A DNA stretch of 64,000 nt from Candidatus Latescibacterota bacterium (GCA_965219385.1 CBDCNM010000001.1:1042631-1106630); one strand, 5' to 3'. Counted from the first letter of the stretch, positions 3,976 to 44,545 are shown. Translations and numbers: made by a program. Notes: generated by a model not told the origin, from the sequence alone.

Positions 3976-6971
3976 TGAAAGAAAAAATTACCCGCAAAAG
4001 CCTGGAAATAAAAGATAACCGCACCTGTCTGCCCCAATCCGCTGGCCGCGAGCACTGGCGCAGCCTCGACGAACTCGCCCGCACAGATGAGTTTCAGGAA
4101 ATGCTCCAGCGCGAATTCCCCGAGCAAGCCTCGGAAATGAATGACCCGGCGAGCCGGCGCAATTTCCTGAAGTTAATGGGCGCTTCCCTGGCTTTCGGAG
4201 GCCTCACGGGGTGTACCGTTCAGCCGGCTGAAAAAATCGTCCCCTATGTGCGCGCTCCGGAAAACATGCTTCCCGGCAAACCCTTGTACTATGCATCGGC
4301 CATGCCTCTGAGCGGGGTGGCTACCGGTATTCTGGTCGAAAGTCATATGGGGCGCCCCACCCATATCGAAGGCAATCCTCAACATCCAGGTAGTCTGGGC
4401 GGAGTCAATACCCTGATTCAAGCTTCGGTGCTCGACCTCTACGATCCAGACCGTGCCCAGACAGTCAAAAATGCCGGTCGGATCAGCACCTGGAGCAACT
4501 TTTTGCAGGACCTCAACCTAGGCCTGGAACGGCAGCGTCTCAAAAAAGGGGCCGGCCTGAGGATACTCACCCAAACAGTGGGTTCGCCTACTCTGGGCTA
4601 CCAACTCAAGACCCTCCTCGAAGGGCTTTCCCAGGCCCGCTGGCACCAGTACGAACCTGCCAACCGCGACAACGTCAGAGCCGGTGCCATGCTCGCCTTT
4701 GGAGAGCCGGTCCACACCTATTGCGATTTTTCGCAAGCAGATGTGGTCCTCTCCCTGGACGCGGATTTTGCTTTCAGCGGCCCCGGCAATACCCGCTATG
4801 CCCGCGATTTTGCCGCTGGCCGCCGGCTCGCCGAGGGCGCCAAAGAAATGAACCGCCTCTACGCGGTGGAAAGCACCCCTACGGCCACCGGCAGTATAGC
4901 GGATCACCGCATGGCCTTGAGCACGGGGGAAATCGAGGCTTTCGCTCTGACCCTGGCCCGGAAGCTGGAGGTTTCCTGGACCTCGGAGGAAAAGCTCGAA
5001 CCCTACGACGACGAGGCTGGCTGGTTAGAGCCTCTGGCGCGCGATCTGCGCAAGAATCGAGGTTCCAGCCTGGTTATCGCCGGCGACTACCAGGCCCCGG
5101 CCTTGCACGCCCTTGCCCACGCCATTAACGAGGCTTTGGGCAATGTCGGAAAAACCGTCCACTACACCGACCCCATCGAGGTGGAATCTGTAGACCAGAG
5201 CCAGTCCCTGCGGGAACTGGTGAACGACATAAGGGCCGGACAGGTAGACCTACTTGTCATCCTGGGCGGGGACCCGGTCTTCAATACACCGGCGGATCTG
5301 GAGTTTGGCCAGGCTCTACAGATGGTCGAGTTTCGCGCCTACCTGGGTATGTATGAAAACCAAACCTCGAATCTGTGTCACTGGCATATCCCCGAGTCCC
5401 ACTACCTGGAATCCTGGAGCGACGCCCGCGCCTACGACGGCACGGTTTCAATCATCCAGCCCCTAGTTGAACCGCTTTATGGCACCAAATCCGCCCACGA
5501 ACTGCTTGGAGCCATGAACGGTCAGACCGGCCGTCCGGTCCTCGACACCCTGCGAGAGTACTGGGCGAACCAGGCTGTCGCCGGGGACTTCGAGGAATTC
5601 TGGCTTCAGTCCCTGCACGACGGGGTGCTGTCCGACACTGCCCTGCCCGCCAAAACCGTCACCCCGAACAAAAACCTGCGGATTCCCACGGGAATTGGCC
5701 GCGGCCTGCAAGAAGAGGAACTCGAACTGGTTTTGCGGCCGGATCCGCTGATCTGGGACGGCCGTTTTGCCAACAACGGCTGGTTGCAGGAAACCCCCAA
5801 CCCCATCACCAAGCTTACCTGGGACAACGCCGCCCTTTTAAGTCCGGCCACCGCAAAGCGTCTGGGGGTCCAAAACGAGCAAATAGTTCATTTGAATTAC
5901 CAGGGCCGCTCCATCAGCGCTCCTGTATGGATCGCGCCAGGCCAGGCCCGCGATGTAGTGACCGTCCACCTGGGCTATGGTCAGATCCGCAGCGGTCGGG
6001 GCGGCACCGATGCCGGCTTCAATGCCTATGCGCTGCGGCCGTCCACCCATTTGTGGGGCGGAAAAGGCCTGCAGATCGCCAAAACCTTTGAGCGCCATCC
6101 ACTGGCCTGCACCCAGGACCACCACAGCATGGAGGGCCGCCACCTGGTCCGCCACGGCAACCTGCAGGAGTACAAAAAGCATCCAACCTTCGCCCGGGAA
6201 GAGGGCCACAATTTCCCCGCGGATTTCACCCTTTACTCCGGGTTTGAGTACAACGGCAATGCCTGGGGCATGACCATTGACCTGAACGCCTGCATCGGCT
6301 GCAATGCCTGTTCCGTGGCCTGCCAGTCCGAAAACAATATCCCGGTCGTGGGCAAGGAAGAGGTGCTCAATGCACGGGAAATGTCCTGGATCCGCATCGA
6401 CCGCTACTACGCCGGCGATATGGACGATCCCGAGATCCTCCACCAGCCCGTCCCCTGTCAACAGTGCGAAAACGCCCCGTGCGAGCTGGTCTGTCCGGTG
6501 ACCGCAACCTCGCACAGCGAAGAAGGTCTCAACGACATGGTCTACAACCGCTGCGTGGGCACCCGTTACTGTTCCAACAACTGTCCTTACAAGGTCCGGC
6601 GCTTTAATTTTCTGCAGTACGCGGACCGCGACACCGAGAGCTTGAAGTTACAGAAAAATCCCGATGTAACCATACGAGCACGCGGGGTGATGGAAAAGTG
6701 CACCTATTGCGTCCAGCGCATCAACACCGCGCGCATCGAGTCCAAGAAGGCCGGCCAACCCATCCGCGACGGCCAGATCAAAACCGCCTGCCAGCAAGCC
6801 TGTCCCACTGAGGCCATTGCCTTTGGAGATATCAACGATCCCAAGGCCAAGGTGGCCAAGCTCAAGGCCAGTCCGCTCAACTACGAGATCCTGAACGAAT
6901 TGAACACCCGGCCCCGCACCTCTTACCTAGCCCGGGTGAACAATCCCAACTCGGAGATAATCGAGAGCTGA
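3975..6971 (+). CDS. actB: Alternative complex III subunit ActB (TAT-exported molybdopterin-oxidoreductase-like domain fused to a Fe-S domain)
   Basis: WRSLDEL, TAT motif SRRNFLKLMG, GRPTHIEGNPQHP, C-terminal CIGCNAC, CQQCENAPC, CVGTRYCSNNCPY, EKCTYC. ATG at 3975 overlaps the actA stop (TAATG). Confidence 0.95.
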   Translation: MKEKITRKSLEIKDNRTCLPQSAGREHWRSLDELARTDEFQEMLQREFPEQASEMNDPASRRNFLKLMGASLAFGGLTGCTVQPAEKIVPYVRAPENMLPGKPLYYASAMPLSGVATGILVESHMGRPTHIEGNPQHPGSLGGVNTLIQASVLDLYDPDRAQTVKNAGRISTWSNFLQDLNLGLERQRLKKGAGLRILTQTVGSPTLGYQLKTLLEGLSQARWHQYEPANRDNVRAGAMLAFGEPVHTYCDFSQADVVLSLDADFAFSGPGNTRYARDFAAGRRLAEGAKEMNRLYAVESTPTATGSIADHRMALSTGEIEAFALTLARKLEVSWTSEEKLEPYDDEAGWLEPLARDLRKNRGSSLVIAGDYQAPALHALAHAINEALGNVGKTVHYTDPIEVESVDQSQSLRELVNDIRAGQVDLLVILGGDPVFNTPADLEFGQALQMVEFRAYLGMYENQTSNLCHWHIPESHYLESWSDARAYDGTVSIIQPLVEPLYGTKSAHELLGAMNGQTGRPVLDTLREYWANQAVAGDFEEFWLQSLHDGVLSDTALPAKTVTPNKNLRIPTGIGRGLQEEELELVLRPDPLIWDGRFANNGWLQETPNPITKLTWDNAALLSPATAKRLGVQNEQIVHLNYQGRSISAPVWIAPGQARDVVTVHLGYGQIRSGRGGTDAGFNAYALRPSTHLWGGKGLQIAKTFERHPLACTQDHHSMEGRHLVRHGNLQEYKKHPTFAREEGHNFPADFTLYSGFEYNGNAWGMTIDLNACIGCNACSVACQSENNIPVVGKEEVLNAREMSWIRIDRYYAGDMDDPEILHQPVPCQQCENAPCELVCPVTATSHSEEGLNDMVYNRCVGTRYCSNNCPYKVRRFNFLQYADRDTESLKLQKNPDVTIRARGVMEKCTYCVQRINTARIESKKAGQPIRDGQIKTACQQACPTEAIAFGDINDPKAKVAKLKASPLNYEILNELNTRPRTSYLARVNNPNSEIIES

Positions 6972-35801: not shown

Positions 35802-36269
35802 TTAGTTCAACGATTCCAGACAGGACTTGATGGCTTCGAAGTCCGGCATCACCTTGGCATCGTCCGCAATCGACATATAGCGAATGATGCCCTGCTTGTC
35901 GACGACAAAGGCGGAGCGCTTGGCCACCCCAATGAACCCGAGAAGCTCATCATACTGGGCTCCATAGGTGGCGGATACTTCCTTGTTAAAGTCGCTGAGA
36001 AGGGGTATGGTTATGCCTTCTTTGGCCGCCCAGGCCTGGAGACTGAAGGGGCTATCCACACTGATGCCCAGGACCTCGGCGTCGAGGTTTTTATACCCTT
36101 CCAGCCCCTCGGATACCGTGCACAACTCCTCGGTACACACCCCGGTAAAAGCCAGCGGAACAAATAGAAGGAGGACATTTTTTCCGCGTAAGGAGTCGAG
36201 ACTAACCTCCTCTAAGTCGGTGTTTTTCAGGGTAAAATCAGGGGCTTTATCCCCAACTTGCACAGCCAT
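35802..36269 (-). CDS. Peroxiredoxin (AhpE-like redoxin)
   Basis: VGDKAPDFTL, PLAFTGVCTEELC, GISVDS and LLSDF. Confidence 0.92.
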   Translation of the reverse strand: MAVQVGDKAPDFTLKNTDLEEVSLDSLRGKNVLLLFVPLAFTGVCTEELCTVSEGLEGYKNLDAEVLGISVDSPFSLQAWAAKEGITIPLLSDFNKEVSATYGAQYDELLGFIGVAKRSAFVVDKQGIIRYMSIADDAKVMPDFEAIKSCLESLN

Positions 36270-36283
36270 TTATGATGTCCTTC

Positions 36284-36892
36284 TCAAGTGGCGGCCGCAA
36301 AGCGCCGTGCAACTTCGTCCCAGTTGACCACATTCCAAAAAGCCGCAATGTAGTCGGGCCGGCGATTCTGGTAGTTCAGGTAATAGGCATGCTCCCATAC
36401 GTCCAGGCCGAGAATCGGCGTCCCGTCCCCGGACATGATCGGGTTGTCCTGATTGGGGGTACTGAGGACTTCGAGCTTGCCGTCCTTGACTACCAGCCAG
36501 GCCCAGCCGCTGCCAAAGCGGGTGGCGCCGGCCGTGGCGAACTTTTCTTTGAAGGCATCCAGGCCGCCCAGATCGCTGTCGATGGCCGCGGCCAGATCAC
36601 CGCCGGGCGCACCGCTGTCGCCGCTCATTACGGTCCAGAAAAGGCTGTGGTTGGCGTGCCCTCCACCGTTGTTGCGCACGGCCGTGCGGATATCCTCGGG
36701 CACAGCATCCAGATCGCCGATGAGGCCCTCGACCTCTTTGCCCGCCAGGTCGGGATGTCCCTCCAGGGCGGTGTTGACATTGGTGATATAGGTGTTGTGG
36801 TGTTTGGTGTGGTGAATCTCCATGGTGCGGGCATCGATATGGGGCTTGAGTGCGTCGTACCCATAGGGAAGATCGGGAAGTGAATAAGCCAT
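36284..36892 (-). CDS. sodA: Superoxide dismutase, Mn/Fe family (Mn-type signature)
   Basis: [26 protein letters not shown] and DVWEHAYY. Confidence 0.96.
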
Positions 36893-36943
36893 CTTGGTTT
36901 CCTTTCATTGTGGGGTTGTTGGTTGAAGGGAAGGGAGAGAATA

Positions 36944-37324
36944 TCAGGCCCGTTCCGCTTGGGCCCAATAATCTTGCAAAGCCGCTCGAACGGCGTCTTC
37001 GGCCAGGACCGAGCAATGCAATTTCATGGGGGGCAGCCCCCCCAGAGCTGCGGCAATATCCTCTTTGCGCAATTGCTGGACATCTTCCAGGGGCTCCCCC
37101 TGGATCATCTCTGTCAGCATGGAACTAGCTGCAATCGCAGCGGCACAACCAAAGGTCTTGAAAGTGGCACGGGTGATGCGCCCTTCTTCGATCCGCAGGT
37201 AGAGTTGCAGCATATCGCCGCAGGCCGAATTTTCTACCAGACCCACTGCATCCGCGGCTTCTAGTTCTCCCACATTGCGCGGATTTTGGTAGTGATCCAG
37301 TATTTTATCGTTGTAGAGGGACAT
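36944..37324 (-). CDS. iscU: Fe-S cluster scaffold, IscU/NifU N-terminal family
   Basis: DHYQNPRNVG, ACGD, TFGC and KLHCSVLA. Confidence 0.9.
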   Translation of the reverse strand: MSLYNDKILDHYQNPRNVGELEAADAVGLVENSACGDMLQLYLRIEEGRITRATFKTFGCAAAIAASSMLTEMIQGEPLEDVQQLRKEDIAAALGGLPPMKLHCSVLAEDAVRAALQDYWAQAERA

Positions 37325-37456: not shown

Positions 37457-37777
37457 TCAGGCCTTAAAATCGATGAGGCCGGTCTTGCCCCCGGCACAAT
37501 CTTTCCAGTAATTCCGCACCATCTGCAACAATTCCCACATGATGGTGTCTCTGGCCACGCGATCGATGATGCCCTCGAGTTGCTCTGCCTTTTCCCCGTC
37601 GATCAAGCCCAGGCCGCTCATCATGGTAAGATGGTGAATCATCCCGGTCTGGAGCAAGGTCCGATTCATATCGGCCGGGGAAATGCCGCTTTTGGATTCG
37701 AATTCCTCCATCAAAGCAGCGTACAACTCGGCCAGATCCTGCGCGACCGTGGTCTCTAACTTGAAGATCTTTTCCAT
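37457..37777 (-). CDS. Hypothetical helical protein at the end of the psp gene run
   Basis: 106-aa ORF from ATG 37777 with an AAGGA RBS; no family recognised. Confidence 0.7.
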   Translation of the reverse strand: MEKIFKLETTVAQDLAELYAALMEEFESKSGISPADMNRTLLQTGMIHHLTMMSGLGLIDGEKAEQLEGIIDRVARDTIMWELLQMVRNYWKDCAGGKTGLIDFKA

Positions 37778-37836
37778 TGTCCTTCTTAATTTATGCCCCC
37801 TGGCCGCCCATATAGTCGGAAACCTGGCCCGGACTG

Positions 37837-39306
37837 TCAAGAGTCCTCCCTACCCCCAATCAGATCGTGTTTGCGCAGGAGATGGCGAAAGCGGTCGTAG
37901 GACAACTTCAGGCTTTTTGCGGCCTCCTTCTGGCTCCCCCCGGCCCGCTCCAGCGCCCGCTTCAACAAACCCAACTCCAGGCCCCGGGTCTGCTCGTCAA
38001 AGCTCCCATCCCCAACCAGCGGCCCGCCTTGGCCCTGTACTTCGGGCGGCAAATCTTCGACCTCGATACCCTCTTCCCGGGCCACGCACAAGGCCCGCTC
38101 CACCGCGAACTTGAGTTCCCTCACATTGCCGGGCCAGGCGTAGCTTTCCATGGCGCGCAGGGCCGCCTCGCCAAAGGGGCGCAACTGAATCGATGGCACC
38201 TCGGCGCAAATTTGGCGGGCAAAATAATCGGCCAGGGGGCGCATATCCTCAATCCGCTGGCGCAGCGGGGGAAGGTGTATGATTGAAAAACGGAGACGGT
38301 CGTACAGATCCGCCCGAAAGCGGCCCGCCTCTATTTCGGCTTCGAGGTCCGCGTTGGTCGCGGCCACTACCCGCACATCCACCTGGATGGTGTGGGTCCC
38401 GCCGATGCGTTCGAATTCCTGGTACTCAAGTACCCGCAAGACGTTTTTCTGGAAATCCACCGAGGTATTGCCGACCTCGTCCAGAAACAGGGTGCCGCCA
38501 TCGGCGTTTTCAAAGCGGCCCCGGCGCAATTCCGCAGCCCCGGTGAAGGCCCCCTTCTCGTGGCCGAAAAGTTCGGATTCGAGCAGGGTTTCGGACAGGG
38601 CGGCACAATTCATCTTGACAAAGGGCCGCTTGCGCCGACTGCCGCCATAGTGCAGGGCCGCGGCGATCAACTCCTTGCCGGTGCCGCGTTCGCCCTGGAT
38701 CAGGACGGGCCGCGGAATGGAGGCGATTTGTTCGACCTGCTCGAGGAGGGCCTGGATTTTGGGACTGGCGCTGACTATCTGGTAGCGCTGCCCCAACTCG
38801 GTCCGGTAGAAAACATTGTCGCGCCCAAGGGCTTCGTTGTCGCGCCCAAGGGCTTCGTTGTCGCGCCCAAGGGCTTCGTTGTCGGCCTTTAAACGAGCAT
38901 TTTCGCGCAGCACCTGGAGCATGCGCTCGACCTTCTCCATGCTCAATTCCAGCTTGTCCTCAACGTAGAGGTCCTTTTCGATGAAATCGTCAGCCCCGTG
39001 CTGCACCGCTTCCACGGCTGCATCGATGCTGCCTTTGCCGGTCAGGATGATGACCGGCAGTTCGGCGCGCTCCTGTTTGATCTGCTTGAGGATCTCGATC
39101 CCATCCGGCTCACCGGCCCCGAAATCCAGATCCAGCACCACCAGTTCCACCCGCTCCTCCTCTCGGGGCAGGTGTTCTACCAGGCTGGTAGCACTGGAAA
39201 AGGCCAGGACCTCTTTGCCCCTCTGCCGCAGCTGGGCGGCCAGCAGGTCGCGCACCTGCGGCTGGTCATCGGCGATCAAAACGCAGTTTTTTACAGTTTT
39301 ACTCAT
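37837..39306 (-). CDS. Sigma54-dependent response regulator: REC + PspF-like AAA+ + HTH
   Basis: REC (IADD, VLDLD, LTG, IEK), GERGTGKELIA, GAFTGA, FRADLYDRL, WPGNVREL and HTH LSYDRFRHLLRKH. Confidence 0.93.
   Translation of the reverse strand: MSKTVKNCVLIADDQPQVRDLLAAQLRQRGKEVLAFSSATSLVEHLPREEERVELVVLDLDFGAGEPDGIEILKQIKQERAELPVIILTGKGSIDAAVEAVQHGADDFIEKDLYVEDKLELSMEKVERMLQVLRENARLKADNEALGRDNEALGRDNEALGRDNVFYRTELGQRYQIVSASPKIQALLEQVEQIASIPRPVLIQGERGTGKELIAAALHYGGSRRKRPFVKMNCAALSETLLESELFGHEKGAFTGAAELRRGRFENADGGTLFLDEVGNTSVDFQKNVLRVLEYQEFERIGGTHTIQVDVRVVAATNADLEAEIEAGRFRADLYDRLRFSIIHLPPLRQRIEDMRPLADYFARQICAEVPSIQLRPFGEAALRAMESYAWPGNVRELKFAVERALCVAREEGIEVEDLPPEVQGQGGPLVGDGSFDEQTRGLELGLLKRALERAGGSQKEAAKSLKLSYDRFRHLLRKHDLIGGREDS
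38816..38884. repeat. 21-bp perfect tandem repeat x3.3 (encodes DNEALGR)
   Basis: TTGTCGCGCCCAAGGGCTTCG three times plus TTGTCG. Confidence 0.95.
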
Positions 39307-39330
39307 GGCGGTACCGACGTGATAAAATCT

Positions 39331-40899
39331 CTATAAGTAATTGTCCCCCAGGCTTTCACCGCTACTTCCAGCCTCGTAGTTCAGCGGTATATCCAGGCGG
39401 AAGACAGCCCCGTGCCCCAGCCTGCTCTTTACCCGCAACTCACCGTGGTGGGCCTGGACCAGGCGCCGGGCAATGCTCAACCCGTAGCCGTTGCCCCTTT
39501 CCTTGGTACTGAACCCCGGGTCGAAGACGTGCTTGAGATGCTCTTCGGCAATGCCGGGTCCATCGTCTTCAACCTCGATGAATACCATGGCCCGCTCCTG
39601 GTTGTACCCCACCCCCACGCCCACTTCCCCTCCCCCTTCGGCTAGGGCTTCGAGGGCATTGAGGCACAAATTGGTTACGGCCTCCCTCAGCATCCGTTCA
39701 TCCGCTTCGATCCGCGGCACCCCTTCCTGGACCCGGATCCGCAGCTGGGCTCCGCTGGTCTGACTCTTCACCGTCTCGACCACCTTGTACACCAGCCCGG
39801 CAGGATCAAAAAGTCCAGGACGCACCCGCTCGGGTTTCATGGCCTCCAGGTATCTCACCCATTCTTCGTAAAGCTGTTCGTGCTCGGCGGCCAGACCTGC
39901 CAGATCGCCTTCCCATGGGGCTTGGCCCCGGACCCGCCGCACTAGGCTGCGCAGCCGGCTGCCGGCGATGCCCAGCAAATTTTTGAGCTGGTGCCCTTTG
40001 GTGTAGAGCCCTTCGTAGGCCTGTTCCCTGCCCAGTTCGACCAGCTCGAGCGACAGGCGCGCCAGGACCTGAGATGCGCTGGGGCCGAATTCCTCGGCGA
40101 TATGCTGGTATTCCTGGGGCAGATCCCCGGGTTTGACATGGTGGAAAAACAGCCGGGCCAGATGGGTGTAGGGAGCGCGAAAGGTCGGATCCAGCTGGAT
40201 GGCTACCTTGAATTCTCCCAGGGCCCCCAGGATCTGACTGCCACGCATAAGTAAAACCCCTAAACTATTGTGACCCAATGCAGAAAGTGGATTAACACTC
40301 AGCCCCTTTCGAAAGGCTTTAATGGCTTGCGGATGGGTTTCCTCCCCCTCGGTATAAATATTGCCCAGGGCAAAACAGACCCGGTCCAGACCGTCGTAGT
40401 CTTCTCCCTTATCCACAGCCTCTACAATGGCCTCGAAGTGGTGAATAGCCCGCTGGCGCTTTTCGCTCTTGCGCCGGGCTGAGCCGGCAAAGATCAAGCC
40501 TAGTTGAAAATGGGCCTCGAGCTTGCCGGCTGCCGCCGCTGCTGCAAAGGTATCAATCGCATCCTGAACCCGCCCCCCCTGCAGCTGGCACAGCCCCAGC
40601 CGAAAAAGCAGATTGGCCTCTCCTGGTTCCCGTACCAGCCCCTTCTCGAAGGCCTCTTCGGCCTCCCTCCATTGCTCTAGGCGATAATGGGCCAAACCCA
40701 AATCGCGCCAGGCACCCGGATAGCCCGGGTCTTTTTCCAGGACCTGCTGAAAACCCTGGACAGCGGCTTTGAAGGCCCCCTTTTTCAGATCGTCCCGGCC
40801 CTGGTGGTAGACATCTGTGACTGGTTGGCCGCTGCCGCCGGCCAACTCTTCCGCCTCCGCGGGCGGGCGGGCACCCTGTAGCCCTGGCCTATTTGACAT
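39331..40899 (-). CDS. Soluble TPR-repeat sensor histidine kinase
   Basis: Several TPRs (AWRDLGLAHYRL, LLFRLGLC, GHNSLGVLL), H-box GHQLKNLL, N-box NLCLNA, DDGPG, FSTK, GYGL. No TM segment; ATG at 40899. Confidence 0.9.
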   Translation of the reverse strand: MSNRPGLQGARPPAEAEELAGGSGQPVTDVYHQGRDDLKKGAFKAAVQGFQQVLEKDPGYPGAWRDLGLAHYRLEQWREAEEAFEKGLVREPGEANLLFRLGLCQLQGGRVQDAIDTFAAAAAAGKLEAHFQLGLIFAGSARRKSEKRQRAIHHFEAIVEAVDKGEDYDGLDRVCFALGNIYTEGEETHPQAIKAFRKGLSVNPLSALGHNSLGVLLMRGSQILGALGEFKVAIQLDPTFRAPYTHLARLFFHHVKPGDLPQEYQHIAEEFGPSASQVLARLSLELVELGREQAYEGLYTKGHQLKNLLGIAGSRLRSLVRRVRGQAPWEGDLAGLAAEHEQLYEEWVRYLEAMKPERVRPGLFDPAGLVYKVVETVKSQTSGAQLRIRVQEGVPRIEADERMLREAVTNLCLNALEALAEGGGEVGVGVGYNQERAMVFIEVEDDGPGIAEEHLKHVFDPGFSTKERGNGYGLSIARRLVQAHHGELRVKSRLGHGAVFRLDIPLNYEAGSSGESLGDNYL

Positions 40900-40915
40900 A
40901 CCTGAGTCCCCAAAC

Positions 40916-41071
40916 TCAACTTTTGAGCAGACGCCAACCTGCAAAAAGCACCCCCAGCACAAAAAGCGCCAGGGCGATTTCCCAGATCAGGCCGATCAAA
41001 ACCCCCGCGATCTTCAGCGCCAGCAAGGCCCCCACGACCAGCAGCGCAACACCTGCTATCTTGGCCAGCAT
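40916..41071 (-). CDS. 51-aa hydrophobic membrane protein (PspG-like size and character)
   Basis: Not in the ORF track: MLAKIAGVALLVVGALLALKIAGVLIGLIWEIALALFVLGVLFAGWRLLKS, with RBS GGAGG. Confidence 0.7.
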   Translation of the reverse strand: MLAKIAGVALLVVGALLALKIAGVLIGLIWEIALALFVLGVLFAGWRLLKS

Positions 41072-41076
41072 CTTTC

Positions 41077-41331
41077 CTACCTCCCTTGAATTTTGGCTTT
41101 TTCTGCTTCCCAGCGGTCGAATTTTTCGCTCAGGGCGATCATCACATCCTGCACGTCCGTCAAGCGCTGATCGATCTGGTCCAGGCGGTTTTACATCTTT
41201 TCCAACGCTTTGTCCCCATCTTTTTCTGAAGACATCCTCTTGATCCGTTTATCCGTGTTGAGATAGTTTACGAAGCCGATGCACAGAACGATCAAACTGA
41301 TTGCTAATGCGAGTTCGAATAGCCAGCCCAT
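41077..41331 (-). pseudogene. PspB-like TM + coiled-coil protein with an in-frame TAA at codon 47
   Basis: MGWLFELALAISLIVLCIGFVNYL...LEKM*NRLDQIDQRLTDVQDVMIALSEKFDRWE...; RBS GGAG; internal stop at 41191-41193. Confidence 0.65.
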
Positions 41332-41436
41332 ATTTCTCTCCGTTCATGCGAAAAAGATAACCGGACTCTGGTCCGAGTCCGAGTCCGCGCCCTGGTTCAA
41401 AGTTTGGCTTTTTCCTCTTCCCGGAGGCCTGCCGTC

Positions 41437-41898
41437 CTAGGCCGAGTCCACCCCCCGGCTCCAGGGCTTTTCGTGGGCCAACAGGATCTCGGGGAAGCGG
41501 TACACCACCATCCCCGACTCGGTGATTTCGATTTCCACAAACCCGCCATCGGCCAGCCGCACGAGGATCTCCTCGGCTTCCTCCATGGTCAGGCCGGTAT
41601 CGGCCGCGGTTTCGGTCGCGGTCAGGCGCCCGCCCCGCTCCTGCCCCAGGCGCACAATGGCGTTTTGCTGGCGCCGGTAGCGCAGCAGCTGGGCAGAGGA
41701 ATCCAGCTTCCGGGCCAGCACCCACAACACCCCTCCCAGAACAACCAGGGCCACCCCCGCCGAGAGCGGGTCTTCCCACTGGCGCTGCTCGAGTTTGCTG
41801 AACAATCCCCACAGCATCAATCCCAGGCCCACCGACACCATGGGCACGGCCCAGACCTTGAGAAACAGCGCGCCGAGCCGCTTCAAGCCGCCTTCCAT
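41437..41898 (-). CDS. Two-TM membrane protein with a C-terminal winged-helix-like domain
   Basis: Two hydrophobic helices followed by GGRLTATETAADTGLTMEEAEEILVRLADGGFVEIEITESGMVVYRFP. Alternative start at 41952. Confidence 0.75.
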   Translation of the reverse strand: MEGGLKRLGALFLKVWAVPMVSVGLGLMLWGLFSKLEQRQWEDPLSAGVALVVLGGVLWVLARKLDSSAQLLRYRRQQNAIVRLGQERGGRLTATETAADTGLTMEEAEEILVRLADGGFVEIEITESGMVVYRFPEILLAHEKPWSRGVDSA

Positions 41899-42025
41899 GT
41901 AATTCCCCGCCTTAATTTTTGCCTCTCTTGTCGCGGTTCGCACGGTGCGCATAGGTTATCTACCCTACTAGGATTGTTGGGTTGTGCGGAAATTGACAGA
42001 AGCCGGTCCCTCTGGACCACGCCGT

Positions 42026-42709
42026 TCACTTCTCAGCTTTGCCCTTTTTCAGCCTGGCCTTGAGAGAAGCCAGTTCGTCCTCCACGCCACGGTTCCCTTC
42101 GAGCTTGCGCATCTCTTTTTCGATATCCTCCATTTCCCCTGATATCTCGGTATGCGCCTCGGCTTCGGCTTCGGACGTCTCGATCTTCTGCTCAAAGCGC
42201 TCAAAGCTGGAAAAGGCATCGTTCCCCAGCCCCGAAATGCTCTGCGCCAGCTTCTTGCGGGCCTCGGCCGCCCGGTGCCGGGCCACCAGGGTCCCCTGGC
42301 GGGTGCGGGCCTCTTCCAGCTTGGTCTTGAGCTCGCGGAGCTGGTCGCGCAGCTGGTCGGCAGTTTGCCGACTCTCACCCAGGGCCGGCTGCAAATCTCG
42401 AGCAGCTTGTTGCAATACGGCCTTGCGCTCCAGGGCGCGGCGGGCCAGATCGTCTTCCCCTGCTTCCACGGCGCGTTCGGCCTTGCCCTGCCACTCCGCC
42501 ACCTGGGCTTCTTTCTCATTGTACTGCCGCTCCAGGCGCTTCTGGTTGGCCACGGCCGTGCCGACCGAAGCTGTTGCCTTGTTTACGGCTTCTTCCATTT
42601 CGCGGACCATCTGCCGGATCATCTTTTCGGGGTCCTCGGCCCGATCCAGGGCTTCGTTGATGTTGGATTTGAGGATGTCCGCCATGCGTGAAAAAGCTCC
42701 CTTGGCCAT
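42026..42709 (-). CDS. pspA: Phage shock protein A (PspA/IM30 family)
   Basis: FSRMADILKSNINEALDRAEDPEKMIRQMVREM, GEDDLARRAL, FERFEQKI and VEDELASLK. ATG at 42709 with AAGGAG. Confidence 0.95.
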   Translation of the reverse strand: MAKGAFSRMADILKSNINEALDRAEDPEKMIRQMVREMEEAVNKATASVGTAVANQKRLERQYNEKEAQVAEWQGKAERAVEAGEDDLARRALERKAVLQQAARDLQPALGESRQTADQLRDQLRELKTKLEEARTRQGTLVARHRAAEARKKLAQSISGLGNDAFSSFERFEQKIETSEAEAEAHTEISGEMEDIEKEMRKLEGNRGVEDELASLKARLKKGKAEK

Positions 42710-42763
42710 GATGCCACTCCTTGTGTGTTTTTTTCTCTGGGTTGCGTACTCGCCAGGAGCCAT

Positions 42764-42779
42764 TGCAAGTCCGGTGCCA
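42764..42779 (-). promoter_or_regulatory. Sigma54 (-24/-12) promoter of the pspA operon
   Basis: TGGCAC-CGGAC-TTGCA on the minus strand, an exact match to TGGCAC-N5-TTGCW. Confidence 0.88.
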
Positions 42780-42865
42780 GGGCGACTCAAATCTTTAAAA
42801 TAGTTCTTATCCCTTTCTGGCTCAAGTAATTATAAATGGCACTGGTGGATTTATCTTTTTTCATT

Positions 42866-42902
42866 TGGCCATTCTCGCCATTTCCGCTGGTGGAACCCGC
42901 CA
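42866..42902. promoter_or_regulatory. Candidate tandem enhancer (UAS) sites
   Basis: Two 15-bp imperfect palindromes, TGGCCATTCTCGCCA and TGGTGGAACCCGCCA, with starts 22 bp apart, about 90-125 bp upstream of the -24 box. Confidence 0.5.
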
Positions 42903-43063: not shown

Positions 43064-44545
43064 ATGACCCATCCGACCGTTGTTATCGGACTGATAGTAT
43101 ACCTTCTGGTGATGCTGGGCATCGGCCTTTATGCCAGCCGCCGCATCGCCAGCTCGGCCGACTTCATCGTCGCCGGCAAACGGCTGTCCCTCCTGCTGTG
43201 TACCGCCACCCTGGCCGCAACTTGGTTCGGAGGCGGCATCTGCATCGGCGCGGCCAGCGCCGCGTACAAGGGAGGGTTCCTGGCCGTCATCGCCGATCCC
43301 TTTGGGGCGGCCCTGTGCCTGTTCCTGGCCGGCCTGTTCTACGTCCGCATGATGCGCCGCATGGGTCTGATGACCGTGGCCTCGTTTTTCACCAGCCGCT
43401 TCAACCGGCACGTCGGACTCCTGGCCAGCCTGTGTACCATCCCGGCCTATGTGGGCTGGGTGGCTGGACTCATGGTGGCCTTCGGCCGCATCCTCCAATC
43501 CCTGACCGGACTGGATCCGACCACCGGCATCTGCCTGGCCGCCTTCATCGTCCTGCTCTACACCTTTGCCGGCGGTATGTGGGCCGTCACCCTGACCGAC
43601 TTTGTCCAGCTGGTCATCCTGGTCGGGGGCTTGGTTCTCCTCACCCCCATCCTCCTGACCGACATGGGTGGCTGGGCCCAGCTCAGGGCGCAAATCCCGG
43701 ACGAGCGCTTCTACCTTTTTCCGCGGGAGGGGGGCGCCACGGGCTGGTTCGCCTATGCCCGCGACTGGCTGGTGGTGGGTCTGGGCAACCTGGCCGGCCA
43801 GGACCTCATCCAGCGCAGTCTGTCCAGCCGCGATGAAAAGGTGGCCTACCGCGGCGCCTATTTCGCCGGCCTGCTCTACATCTCCGTGGGTCTCCTGCCG
43901 GTGTTTCTGGGCCTGGCCGGGGCCGTGATCCTGCCCGAATTGGCCGACCCCGACCTGATCATGATGGAACTGGCCCTCAAGTACCTGCCCGAAATCGCCC
44001 TGGTGCTGTTCATGGGTGCCCTGCTGTCGGCGCTGCTCAGCAGCGCCGACAGCGCCCTGCTGGCCTCGGCCAGCGTCATTGGCTGGGATTTGCTGCGCTT
44101 TTTCAAGCCCGGGAGCAGGGACCACCACACCCTCTGGCTCACCCGCGCCGCCGTTCTGGTCCTTGGCCTGGCCGCCCTGGTCCTGGCCCTGCACAAAACC
44201 TCGGTCTACGACCTGATCGTGGACTCGTGGTCCGTGCTGCTGGCCACCCTCTTCGTGCCCCTCACCGCCGGGATCTGGTGGTCCCGCGGCAACGGCCCCG
44301 GCGCCCTGGCCGCCATAATCGTCGGCTTCATCTCCTGGCAGGTGCTGCTGGTAGTCACCCCCAACCTGCCGGCCGATCTGCTGGCCGTGCCCTTTGCCGC
44401 CCTGGCCCTGATCCTGGTGAGCCTGGCCACCCGCCAGCGGACCCCGGCCCTGCCCCTGACCAACCAGGCCGGGGAGTCCCTGGCCTATGCCGACCGCCTC
44501 GGCCTGTCCTTTGCACCCCACCCCAAAGCCGACCGCACACCATGA
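43064..44545 (+). CDS. Sodium:solute symporter family protein
   Basis: DFIVAG, ATLAATWFGGG, YTFAGGMWAVTLTDFVQ and SSADSALL; about 13 TM helices. ATG at 43064. Confidence 0.92.
   Translation: MTHPTVVIGLIVYLLVMLGIGLYASRRIASSADFIVAGKRLSLLLCTATLAATWFGGGICIGAASAAYKGGFLAVIADPFGAALCLFLAGLFYVRMMRRMGLMTVASFFTSRFNRHVGLLASLCTIPAYVGWVAGLMVAFGRILQSLTGLDPTTGICLAAFIVLLYTFAGGMWAVTLTDFVQLVILVGGLVLLTPILLTDMGGWAQLRAQIPDERFYLFPREGGATGWFAYARDWLVVGLGNLAGQDLIQRSLSSRDEKVAYRGAYFAGLLYISVGLLPVFLGLAGAVILPELADPDLIMMELALKYLPEIALVLFMGALLSALLSSADSALLASASVIGWDLLRFFKPGSRDHHTLWLTRAAVLVLGLAALVLALHKTSVYDLIVDSWSVLLATLFVPLTAGIWWSRGNGPGALAAIIVGFISWQVLLVVTPNLPADLLAVPFAALALILVSLATRQRTPALPLTNQAGESLAYADRLGLSFAPHPKADRTP

Follow-up and report, generated by a model that had tools for sequence, protein, structure and literature searches.

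A conserved pspA locus of Latescibacterota that appears to place a PspF-like activator under a soluble TPR histidine kinase

Introduction

There is still debate, even for Escherichia coli, about how PspA enables cells to sense damage to the inner membrane, and to our knowledge the only worked-out circuit is the direct sequestration of the activator PspF by PspA. The phage-shock-protein (Psp) locus analyzed here lies in a 64,000-nucleotide stretch of DNA from Candidatus Latescibacterota bacterium (GCA_965219385.1 CBDCNM010000001.1:1042631-1106630), hereafter the window. Its pspA gene is followed on the same strand by genes for a soluble histidine kinase with tetratricopeptide repeats (TPR) and for a sigma54 activator carrying a receiver (REC) domain. 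A sequence-only reading had proposed a Psp locus rewired to two-component control, and synteny, the phylogeny of the activator AAA domain and a complex model all support the proposal. Such a rewiring of a PspF-type circuit is considered very probable. The fuller reading, a sigma54-dependent pspA operon with its own two-component regulator in which a dedicated kinase has replaced the activator as the target of PspA feedback, is given a probability of about 0.55.

The enterobacterial Psp system (pspF divergent from pspABCDE) shares with this locus the PspA/IM30 effector, a sigma54 promoter with upstream activator sites, an activator with PspF-type AAA+ and Fis-type helix-turn-helix (HTH) domains and, probably, feedback through PspA. 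In the window, however, the activator has a receiver and a coiled-coil linker, lacks an equivalent of PspF residue W56 and is encoded downstream of pspA on the same strand. The locus also encodes a dedicated soluble TPR kinase, and PspA is predicted to contact this kinase, not the activator. No homologues of PspB, PspC, PspD or PspE are found in the locus, which has a transmembrane (TM) winged-helix protein and TM/coiled-coil proteins instead.

Other described systems resemble the locus in part. LiaR of Bacillus subtilis combines REC with a DNA-binding HTH and acts at a sigma70-type promoter. In the accessible portions of PMC11237479 and PMC9239133, LiaIH-LiaGFSR places a PspA homologue under a two-component system of the same locus, with small membrane proteins adjoining. 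LiaS, a HAMP-domain kinase under the control of LiaF, sits in the membrane, whereas the TPR kinase is soluble; homology between the two loci is limited to PspA, the kinase core and REC. In ZraPSR and CpxP-CpxAR the sensor kinase receives feedback from the effector or chaperone that its system induces, and ZraSR uses a sigma54 activator; ZraS is also the closest solved kinase core to the TPR kinase. That feedback is periplasmic and bears on membrane kinases, whereas kinase and effector are cytoplasmic here and the sensor is a TPR array. Activators of the NtrC1/DctD type consist of REC, a helical coiled-coil linker, whose register matters, and AAA+. This layout is shared with the window activator, and the linker variation by whole heptads found here is as expected if register matters, but the AAA domain lies in the PspF clade.

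PMC11237479 and PMC9239133 are genome surveys of Psp systems. In its available parts the former, by Ravi et al. 2024, mentions classic systems with a membrane kinase as well as NtrC-like factors that contain ACT and PAS domains. In those of Kazakov et al. 2015 (PMC4641369) the Desulfovibrio PspF is domain-less and divergent, i.e., classical. No receiver-bearing PspF or TPR kinase beside pspA appears in the portions at hand of PMC11237479, PMC9239133 (Popp et al. 2022), PMC4641369, PMC12316311 and PMC3128695, a negative limited by the exclusion of PspF and two-component systems from the detailed searches of PMC11237479, whose web app and supplementary tables, like the external data of PMC9239133, could list such a neighbourhood. 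No description of a kinase-controlled pspA operon was found in the literature searched.

Organization of the Locus

The features of the locus are listed below in the order of transcription.

37457-42902, minus strand: the operon unit, comprising upstream sites, promoter and then seven open reading frames (ORFs)
42888-42902, minus strand: putative distal upstream activator site, TGGCGGGTTCCACCA, an imperfect TGGC-N7-GCCA palindrome (motif)
42866-42880, minus strand: putative proximal upstream activator site, TGGCGAGAATGGCCA, 22 bp from the distal site
42764-42779, minus strand: predicted sigma54 (-24/-12) promoter, TGGCACcggacTTGCA, the sole perfect consensus match in 64 kb
42026-42709, minus strand: pspA, 227 amino acids (aa), PspA/IM30 family (PF04012)
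41437-41952, minus strand: TM winged-helix protein, 171 aa, two TM helices and then an acidic cytoplasmic winged helix (hydropathy, model, Foldseek)
41361-41382, minus strand: terminator-like hairpin followed by a T-rich run (folding energy -15.3 kcal/mol)
41077-41331, minus strand: small TM and coiled-coil ORF interrupted by an in-frame TAA at 41191-41193 (homologue alignment)
40916-41071, minus strand: 51-aa hydrophobic ORF with C-terminal GWRLLKS (hydropathy)
39331-40899, minus strand: soluble TPR histidine kinase, 522 aa from the ATG (TPR and HATPase_c)
40078-40386, minus strand: kinase sensor surface, residues 173-275, predicted to hold the PspA hairpin (complex model)
37837-39306, minus strand: REC-AAA+-HTH_8 activator, PspF-like, 489 aa (domains, phylogeny)
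38816-38884, minus strand: perfect 21-bp x 3.3 tandem repeat within the activator gene, encoding DNEALGR three times in the REC-AAA linker
37457-37777, minus strand: 106-aa helical protein of no known family (ORF, model)

All elements of the minus-strand run described earlier, from the sigma54 promoter to the 106-aa protein, were recovered in their places, and the end coordinate then given, 42902, is the outer edge of the distal activator site. The gaps within the operon, taken from the coordinates, measure 5-105 nt. The IscU-like gene that comes next has its own sigma70-like promoter (37414-37386, 11 of 12 positions matched), so the transcription unit probably ends at 37457. A Pfam scan of the seven ORFs gave no match to PspC (PF04024) in any of them, in agreement with the earlier remark that pspC is missing from the locus, and none to PspB (PF06667).

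The first ORF belongs to the PspA family by its match to PF04012 (E 4.3e-49, profile positions 2-218 of 220), while its score against the TIGR02977 equivalog model, 173.3 bits, is below the cut-off of 242.95. It is 36% identical to E. coli PspA and its nearest solved relatives, by PDB sequence matches, are Vipp1 and PspA. Its start is preceded by AAGGAG.

Conservation of the Gene Neighbourhood

An alignment of 32 kinase homologues was scanned against one genome per species of GTDB, which yielded 56 loci (L001-L056). Four of them (L053-L056) were excluded as weak TPR-only matches, leaving 52 true kinase-homologue loci in which the window proteins were searched by tblastn. The activator is the next gene downstream of the kinase in all 51 evaluable loci; L044 ends inside the kinase. 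A candidate kinase-activator fusion in L018 was discarded, as a stop lies between the two genes. pspA was detected in 45 of the 52 loci. Two more (L049 and L050) carry a divergent PspA-like ORF right after the activator (TIGR02977 E 3e-5 for L049), the contig ends before pspA could appear in four (L027, L034, L035 and L047), and tblastn found no pspA at the locus in one (L051). The kinase family is linked to pspA or a pspA-like gene in 47 of the 48 loci that can be judged, across two gene orders, and the synteny of the kinase/activator pair with pspA is thereby confirmed in relatives. Of the 52 loci, 44 contain the TM winged-helix gene, 43 have one or more TM/coiled-coil ORFs and 40 have the 106-aa gene, which is placed after the activator.

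The first gene order, that of the window, is shared by L001-L045 and L052 and includes the divergent sodium:solute symporter gene upstream and the IscU and superoxide dismutase (SOD) genes downstream. These Latescibacterota-type loci come from metagenome-assembled genomes (MAGs) labelled Latescibacterota or Gemmatimonadota (L019 as Gemmatimonas phototrophica), with one Planctomycetota, one Handelsmanbacteria and two “uncultured bacterium”. The second order (kinase, activator, pspA or pspA-like gene, with no membrane genes) characterizes L046-L051, here called Myxococcota-type, which stem from MAGs labelled Myxococcota or “Deltaproteobacteria” except for L046 (“Proteobacteria bacterium”). Their kinases are 31-42% identical to that of the window. 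A gene for an ECF sigma factor follows the pspA or pspA-like gene in these loci.

The Activator and Its PspF Ancestry

The activator matches PF00072, PF00158, PF25601 and PF02954, the architecture of NtrC-class sigma54 enhancer-binding proteins. Its Response_reg domain (residues 9-114, E 7.6e-22) sets it apart from classical PspF, which has no N-terminal regulatory domain. The receiver residues D13, D14, D59, T89 and K111 are present and conserved, and the alignment displays the AAA motifs Walker A (GERGTGKE), GAFTGA and Walker B (DE). Domain and coordinate checks agree with the earlier description of a downstream activator in the same orientation, with a receiver and a neighbouring kinase. 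The alignment of the protein with E. coli PspF shows 46% identity and extends through the C-terminal HTH, which is likewise PspF-like. NCBIfam scores of the AAA part, all below the curated cut-offs, rank PspF first (341.5 bits), followed by NifA (331.9), RtcR (298.5), AtoC (294.8), NorR (293.4) and NtrC (284.5); the PDB sequence matches are PspF (265.7 bits), NifA (261.4) and ZraR (244.6).

For phylogeny the AAA part was searched against a representative library of 1.84 billion proteins. The starting set of 210 sequences comprised the best 150 library hits, nine E. coli activators, the window activator and 50 locus copies. Twenty-seven were dropped whose query match was not exactly one long stretch, as were rows shorter than 200 residues; the activators of 15 loci were kept to limit near-duplicates, L001 and L044 having been selected too but lacking a full-length activator. 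In the resulting 148-row tree E. coli PspF and the window-type activators form a clade with an SH-aLRT support of 97. It contains PspF itself, nine domain-less PspF-like proteins, 10 Latescibacterota-type and 6 Myxococcota-type psp-linked activators, i.e., all those present in the tree, and 14 REC-bearing library representatives. E. coli NtrC, AtoC, ZraR, GlrR, NorR, FhlA, PrpR and RtcR fall outside. A more careful tree of 59 rows, built from most of the clade, seven outside E. coli activators (RtcR omitted) and 14 random outside rows, recovers the PspF clade (100/99) and within it a domain-less PspF subclade (100/99), with E. coli NtrC, AtoC, ZraR, GlrR, NorR, FhlA and PrpR again outside. The AAA domain groups with PspF and not with ordinary NtrC or AtoC, as the proposal of a PspF-like activator had supposed.

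In E. coli the target of PspA within PspF is the AAA domain, and binding of PspA depends on the surface residue W56, according to the accessible part of Joly et al. 2009 (PMC3128695). The window activator has Arg225 in this column of the alignment. Over the 148 rows a Trp occupies the column in 10/10 members of the domain-less PspF subclade, in 0/30 REC-bearing clade members and in 0/104 outside rows; four further “short” clade rows, some of which may be truncated gene calls, also lack it. Judged from these sequences, the docking Trp and the receiver domain look like two mutually exclusive modes of control.

The linker between REC and AAA is helical and heptad-like. Among the 43 loci measured, 38 share a length of 78 residues; the others are L048 (77 residues), L032 and L036 (85 each), and L035 and the window (92 each), the differences being whole ENEALG(R/A) heptads. 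The extra 14 residues of the window correspond to the perfect 21-bp tandem repeat, so this expansion is recent. The extra heptad copies of L032, L035 and L036 are more diverged than those of the window.

The TPR Histidine Kinase

Kinase residues are numbered on the 523-aa translation of 39331-40902 (alignment A1), i.e., +1 relative to the ATG at 40899. Pfam recognizes HATPase_c (E 4e-24) and a TPR domain; HisKA was not matched at E 0.01. No TM-like segment was found, the maximum Kyte-Doolittle mean over 19 residues being 1.05. The H-box KGHQLKNL (H304) and the N, G1, F and G2 boxes (N411/N415, D446-G448-G450, F460 and G470-G472-G474) are invariant in the 32 homologues. By these histidine-kinase boxes, the sequence of the kinase core is intact. 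The closest solved core is ZraS (9jfj_A, E 3e-21), which we take to be the kinase of a sigma54 activator; the DHp and CA parts align from residue 303. Phosphotransfer from the kinase to D59 of the receiver would be expected, the evidence for it being the adjacency of the two genes in every evaluable locus.

The canonical N-terminal TPRs (residues ~45-150) are variable and absent from many homologues of 420 aa. The most conserved part of the kinase is the stretch of residues 170-300, which is TPR-like (match to the O-GlcNAc transferase TPR at 180-248) and is present also in the Myxococcota-type kinases.

Promoter and Upstream Activator Sites

The consensus used for the window, TGGCAC-N5-TTGCW, has a single match in 64 kb, to be compared with a mean of 0.07 in shuffled sequences (at least one match in 7 of 100 shuffles). 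The predicted promoter lies 55 nt upstream of the pspA ATG and fits the GG and GC elements. Among 46 pspA upstream regions (45 loci and the window), 41 have the strict motif TGG[CT]A[CT]-N5-TTGC[AT] 63-139 nt 5′ of the pspA start, and three (L006, L032 and L042) have at the same place a version with one or two mismatches. No motif was found upstream of pspA in the regions of L046 and L048.

Forty of the regions extend at least 200 nt upstream. Paired TGGC-N7-GCCA-like sites 21-22 bp apart occur in 34 of these (0 of 2000 shuffles), the proximal one beginning 91-105 nt before the promoter. Of the six regions that lack such a pair, three have their two sites 32 bp apart and the other three show a single detectable site. 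The centres of the sites vary while their palindromic arms are kept, as expected of a dimer-binding site. No other pair as close occurs anywhere in the window. A likeness between these sites and the E. coli psp upstream region was not established.

Predicted Complex of PspA with the Kinase

Kinase residues 20-340 and PspA, each entered as an alignment, were modelled as a complex. The median score was 0.62 and the best of three controls scored 0.00. The 0.62 mark is reached by 116 of 157 solved complexes and by 2 of 215 mismatched pairs, a rough calibration since own alignments were used here. Three runs agree in at least 90% of the contacts, with a pLDDT of the partner of at least 73. The predicted interface joins kinase residues 173-275 to PspA residues 8-10, 41-62 and 105-123, which belong to the alpha1/alpha2 hairpin. 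Mean conservation is 0.90 over the 29 kinase residues of the interface and 0.65 over the remainder of residues 160-300 (p 2e-7). It is unlikely that the model recalls a similar solved complex, since no name other than PspA or Vipp1 is attached to the 13 solved PspA/Vipp1 sequences. The model supports binding of the PspA hairpin by the conserved TPR surface of the kinase, and the suggestion made earlier that the TPRs bind PspA has thus passed a controlled prediction.

Membrane Proteins and Other Accessory Genes

The TM winged-helix protein has two hydrophobic segments by hydropathy. In its model a TM hairpin of two long helices precedes the winged helix (mean pLDDT 76.9, and 85-89 in the winged-helix part). 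Neither Pfam nor NCBIfam gave a family above cut-off, and an Atlas search returned unnamed clusters only, plus a MarR lead at 0.86. Foldseek aligns the domain with winged helices of RbkR, IclR, ArsR and MarR proteins and of ESCRT-II (E 2e-3 to 3e-2); the ESCRT-II match (3cuq_A, root-mean-square deviation 1.7 over 62 columns) is one among many winged-helix matches. The domain is acidic, with a net charge of -4 to -8 over 56 residues in 18/18 homologues, and therefore probably binds protein; DNA binding was considered and is unlikely. At a guess, the protein may serve as a membrane anchor for PspA.

The small TM/coiled-coil ORF consists of a 46-codon reading frame (41194-41331), the TAA and 37 in-frame codons, which read NRLDQIDQRLTDVQDVMIALSEKFDRWE... 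and contain the conserved C-terminal motif of the family, RLxxI(D/E)xRLTDVQDVMIALSEKxDRWE. This motif is far more conserved than the remainder of the protein. The 20 aligned homologues are all single intact ORFs, present in 1-3 copies (paralogues) per related locus, so the copy of the window is split. Mutation, sequencing error or read-through may account for the TAA. The sequence-only reading had called this ORF PspB-like and had missed the stop. No homology to PspB was detected: PF06667 has no match at E up to 10 when the stop is read through as X and none in intact homologues, and hhalign against E. coli PspB gives a probability of 2.9%. The likeness is one of layout only (TM, then coiled coil).

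The hairpin at 41361-41382, between the winged-helix gene and the small ORF, is specific to the window. It was considered as a conserved attenuator and rejected: only 3 of 44 relatives have a hairpin of -10 kcal/mol or better, those within coding sequence. The 51-aa ORF was detected by tblastn in six loci and similar ORFs were seen by inspection in L010, L019, L032, L036, L038, L041, L042 and L052; it has no family match. A four-helix model was obtained for the 106-aa protein (pLDDT 75.3), which has no Pfam match, no PDB fold match (best E 2.6) and sub-threshold leads in the Atlas search (best 0.89). A ribbon-helix-helix N-terminus, guessed from its sequence, was not borne out by the model.

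In-frame stops interrupt otherwise well-aligned genes in two other loci. In L052 (8042-9215) there are two TAG in pspA, and two TAG and one TAA in the winged-helix gene; the winged-helix gene of L044 has one TAG at 4195. Five of these six stops are TAG, and assembly error, decay or recoding could account for them.

Genes flanking the operon were also noted. The sodium:solute symporter gene (43064-44545, plus strand) is divergent from pspA and was detected by tblastn in 39 loci; the two genes share the intergenic region that contains the activator sites. On the 3′ side, the IscU-like and Fe/Mn SOD genes (window 35802-37324) follow the psp unit, likewise in nearly all Latescibacterota-type loci, and a peroxiredoxin gene comes next in the window. 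The IscU/SOD region looks like a conserved stress-gene neighbourhood.

A Model for the Control of pspA and Its Alternatives

At the level of sequence, the anatomy of the locus is conserved, the activator is PspF-like by descent, its receiver is complete and its docking Trp lost, the kinase core is intact, and promoter and sites are conserved. We propose that the soluble kinase would phosphorylate D59 of the activator, which would then assemble on the two upstream sites and open the sigma54 promoter. Read-through into the kinase and activator genes would give positive autoregulation: these genes lie downstream in the same transcription direction, so induction would also raise the levels of both proteins. 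The kinase TPR surface (173-275) is predicted to clamp the alpha1/alpha2 hairpin of PspA. By analogy, free PspA may keep the kinase off, or in a phosphatase mode, and membrane damage would pull PspA to the membrane and into polymers, freeing the kinase; the TM winged-helix and TM/coiled-coil proteins would perhaps assist this recruitment. Negative feedback would then act one step above that of E. coli, on the kinase and not on PspF. That PspA acts on the kinase is, taken by itself, given somewhat less than an even chance.

PspA is a relative of ESCRT-III. A more tentative extension of the proposed circuit, leaning on the models, is that the TPR kinase may read the PspA hairpin, free versus buried in a membrane polymer, as its ligand and in response phosphorylate the PspF-derived activator, while the acidic winged-helix protein could be an ESCRT-II-like adaptor that seeds PspA on the membrane.

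Several points weigh against the circuit proposed here. The whole activator scores 367.1 bits against TIGR02974 (PspF), still its top model, with a cut-off of 443.55; its assignment to PspF is relative, NifA models scoring almost as high. The trees comprise the best 150 library hits to this query, nine E. coli proteins and a subset of the loci, and the REC-bearing sister group of the 59-row tree is weakly supported (84/47). In the Myxococcota-type loci neither a sigma54 promoter nor a site pair was detected near pspA or the kinase, so the regulatory link in these loci amounts to adjacency. No sigma70-like promoter was detected inside the operon; a pure sigma54 loop could not start, yet an initial supply of both regulators is needed. 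Since the TM/coiled-coil gene is broken, this genome either can do without at least that part or has an impaired system. The score of the complex is a model confidence obtained from unpaired alignments, and the conservation of the PspA interface (0.86 versus 0.78 in the rest of residues 1-140) is not significantly higher (p 0.08). The direction of the PspA effect, off or on, is guessed from analogy, and phosphotransfer, DNA binding and promoter activation are steps that we infer.

Among the alternatives, the one that survives best is that the membrane proteins of the operon (winged-helix, TM/coiled-coil and 51-aa) control the kinase as PspBC or LiaF do, PspA being output only. Short helices or peptides are common ligands of TPR domains, the C-terminal motif of the coiled-coil protein is conserved like a docking helix, and an acidic winged helix suits protein binding over DNA binding; moreover, the winged-helix and TM/coiled-coil genes recur in most of the 52 loci (44 and 43, respectively). 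However, the Myxococcota-type loci keep pspA and the sensor region of the kinase with none of the membrane genes, the coiled-coil gene of the window is broken, and the PspA-kinase model passed with a wide margin. Control by these proteins alone is considered unlikely.

Somewhat less likely again is that kinase and activator form an ordinary two-component system of the cytoplasm whose TPRs detect a redox cue or a soluble metabolite, with pspA as one of several targets and the PspA-kinase interface an artefact. The oxidative-stress genes 3′ of the operon in nearly all related loci would suit this reading, and 14 REC-bearing library representatives, which may lie outside psp loci, belong to the clade of the activator. 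The tie of the kinase family to pspA in nearly all judgeable loci, across two gene orders, speaks against it, as do the position of the sole sigma54 promoter and the sole site pair of the window in front of pspA and the scores of 0.00 of the three complex-model controls.

A retained E. coli mode, in which PspA inhibits the activator directly and receiver and kinase provide a second, independent input, agrees with a PspF-like AAA domain, the target of E. coli PspA in the part of PMC3128695 at hand, but is very improbable given that the contact Trp, present in every domain-less PspF of the subclade, is missing from all 30 REC-bearing clade members and is an Arg in the window.

Significance

The locus appears to represent a second, widespread solution to the control of pspA, in which effector, promoter type and activator lineage are kept, the docking Trp is swapped for a receiver and a soluble kinase is gained. 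The exclusivity of Trp and REC in the PspF clade suggests a discrete evolutionary switch of control mode. Should PspA bind the kinase, measurements of kinase activity in the presence and absence of PspA and of membranes would provide a clean in vitro assay of free versus engaged PspA, and this would be the first case of an ESCRT-III-family protein as a kinase ligand. Three families of no known function also gain names and partners, in phyla with few or no cultured members.

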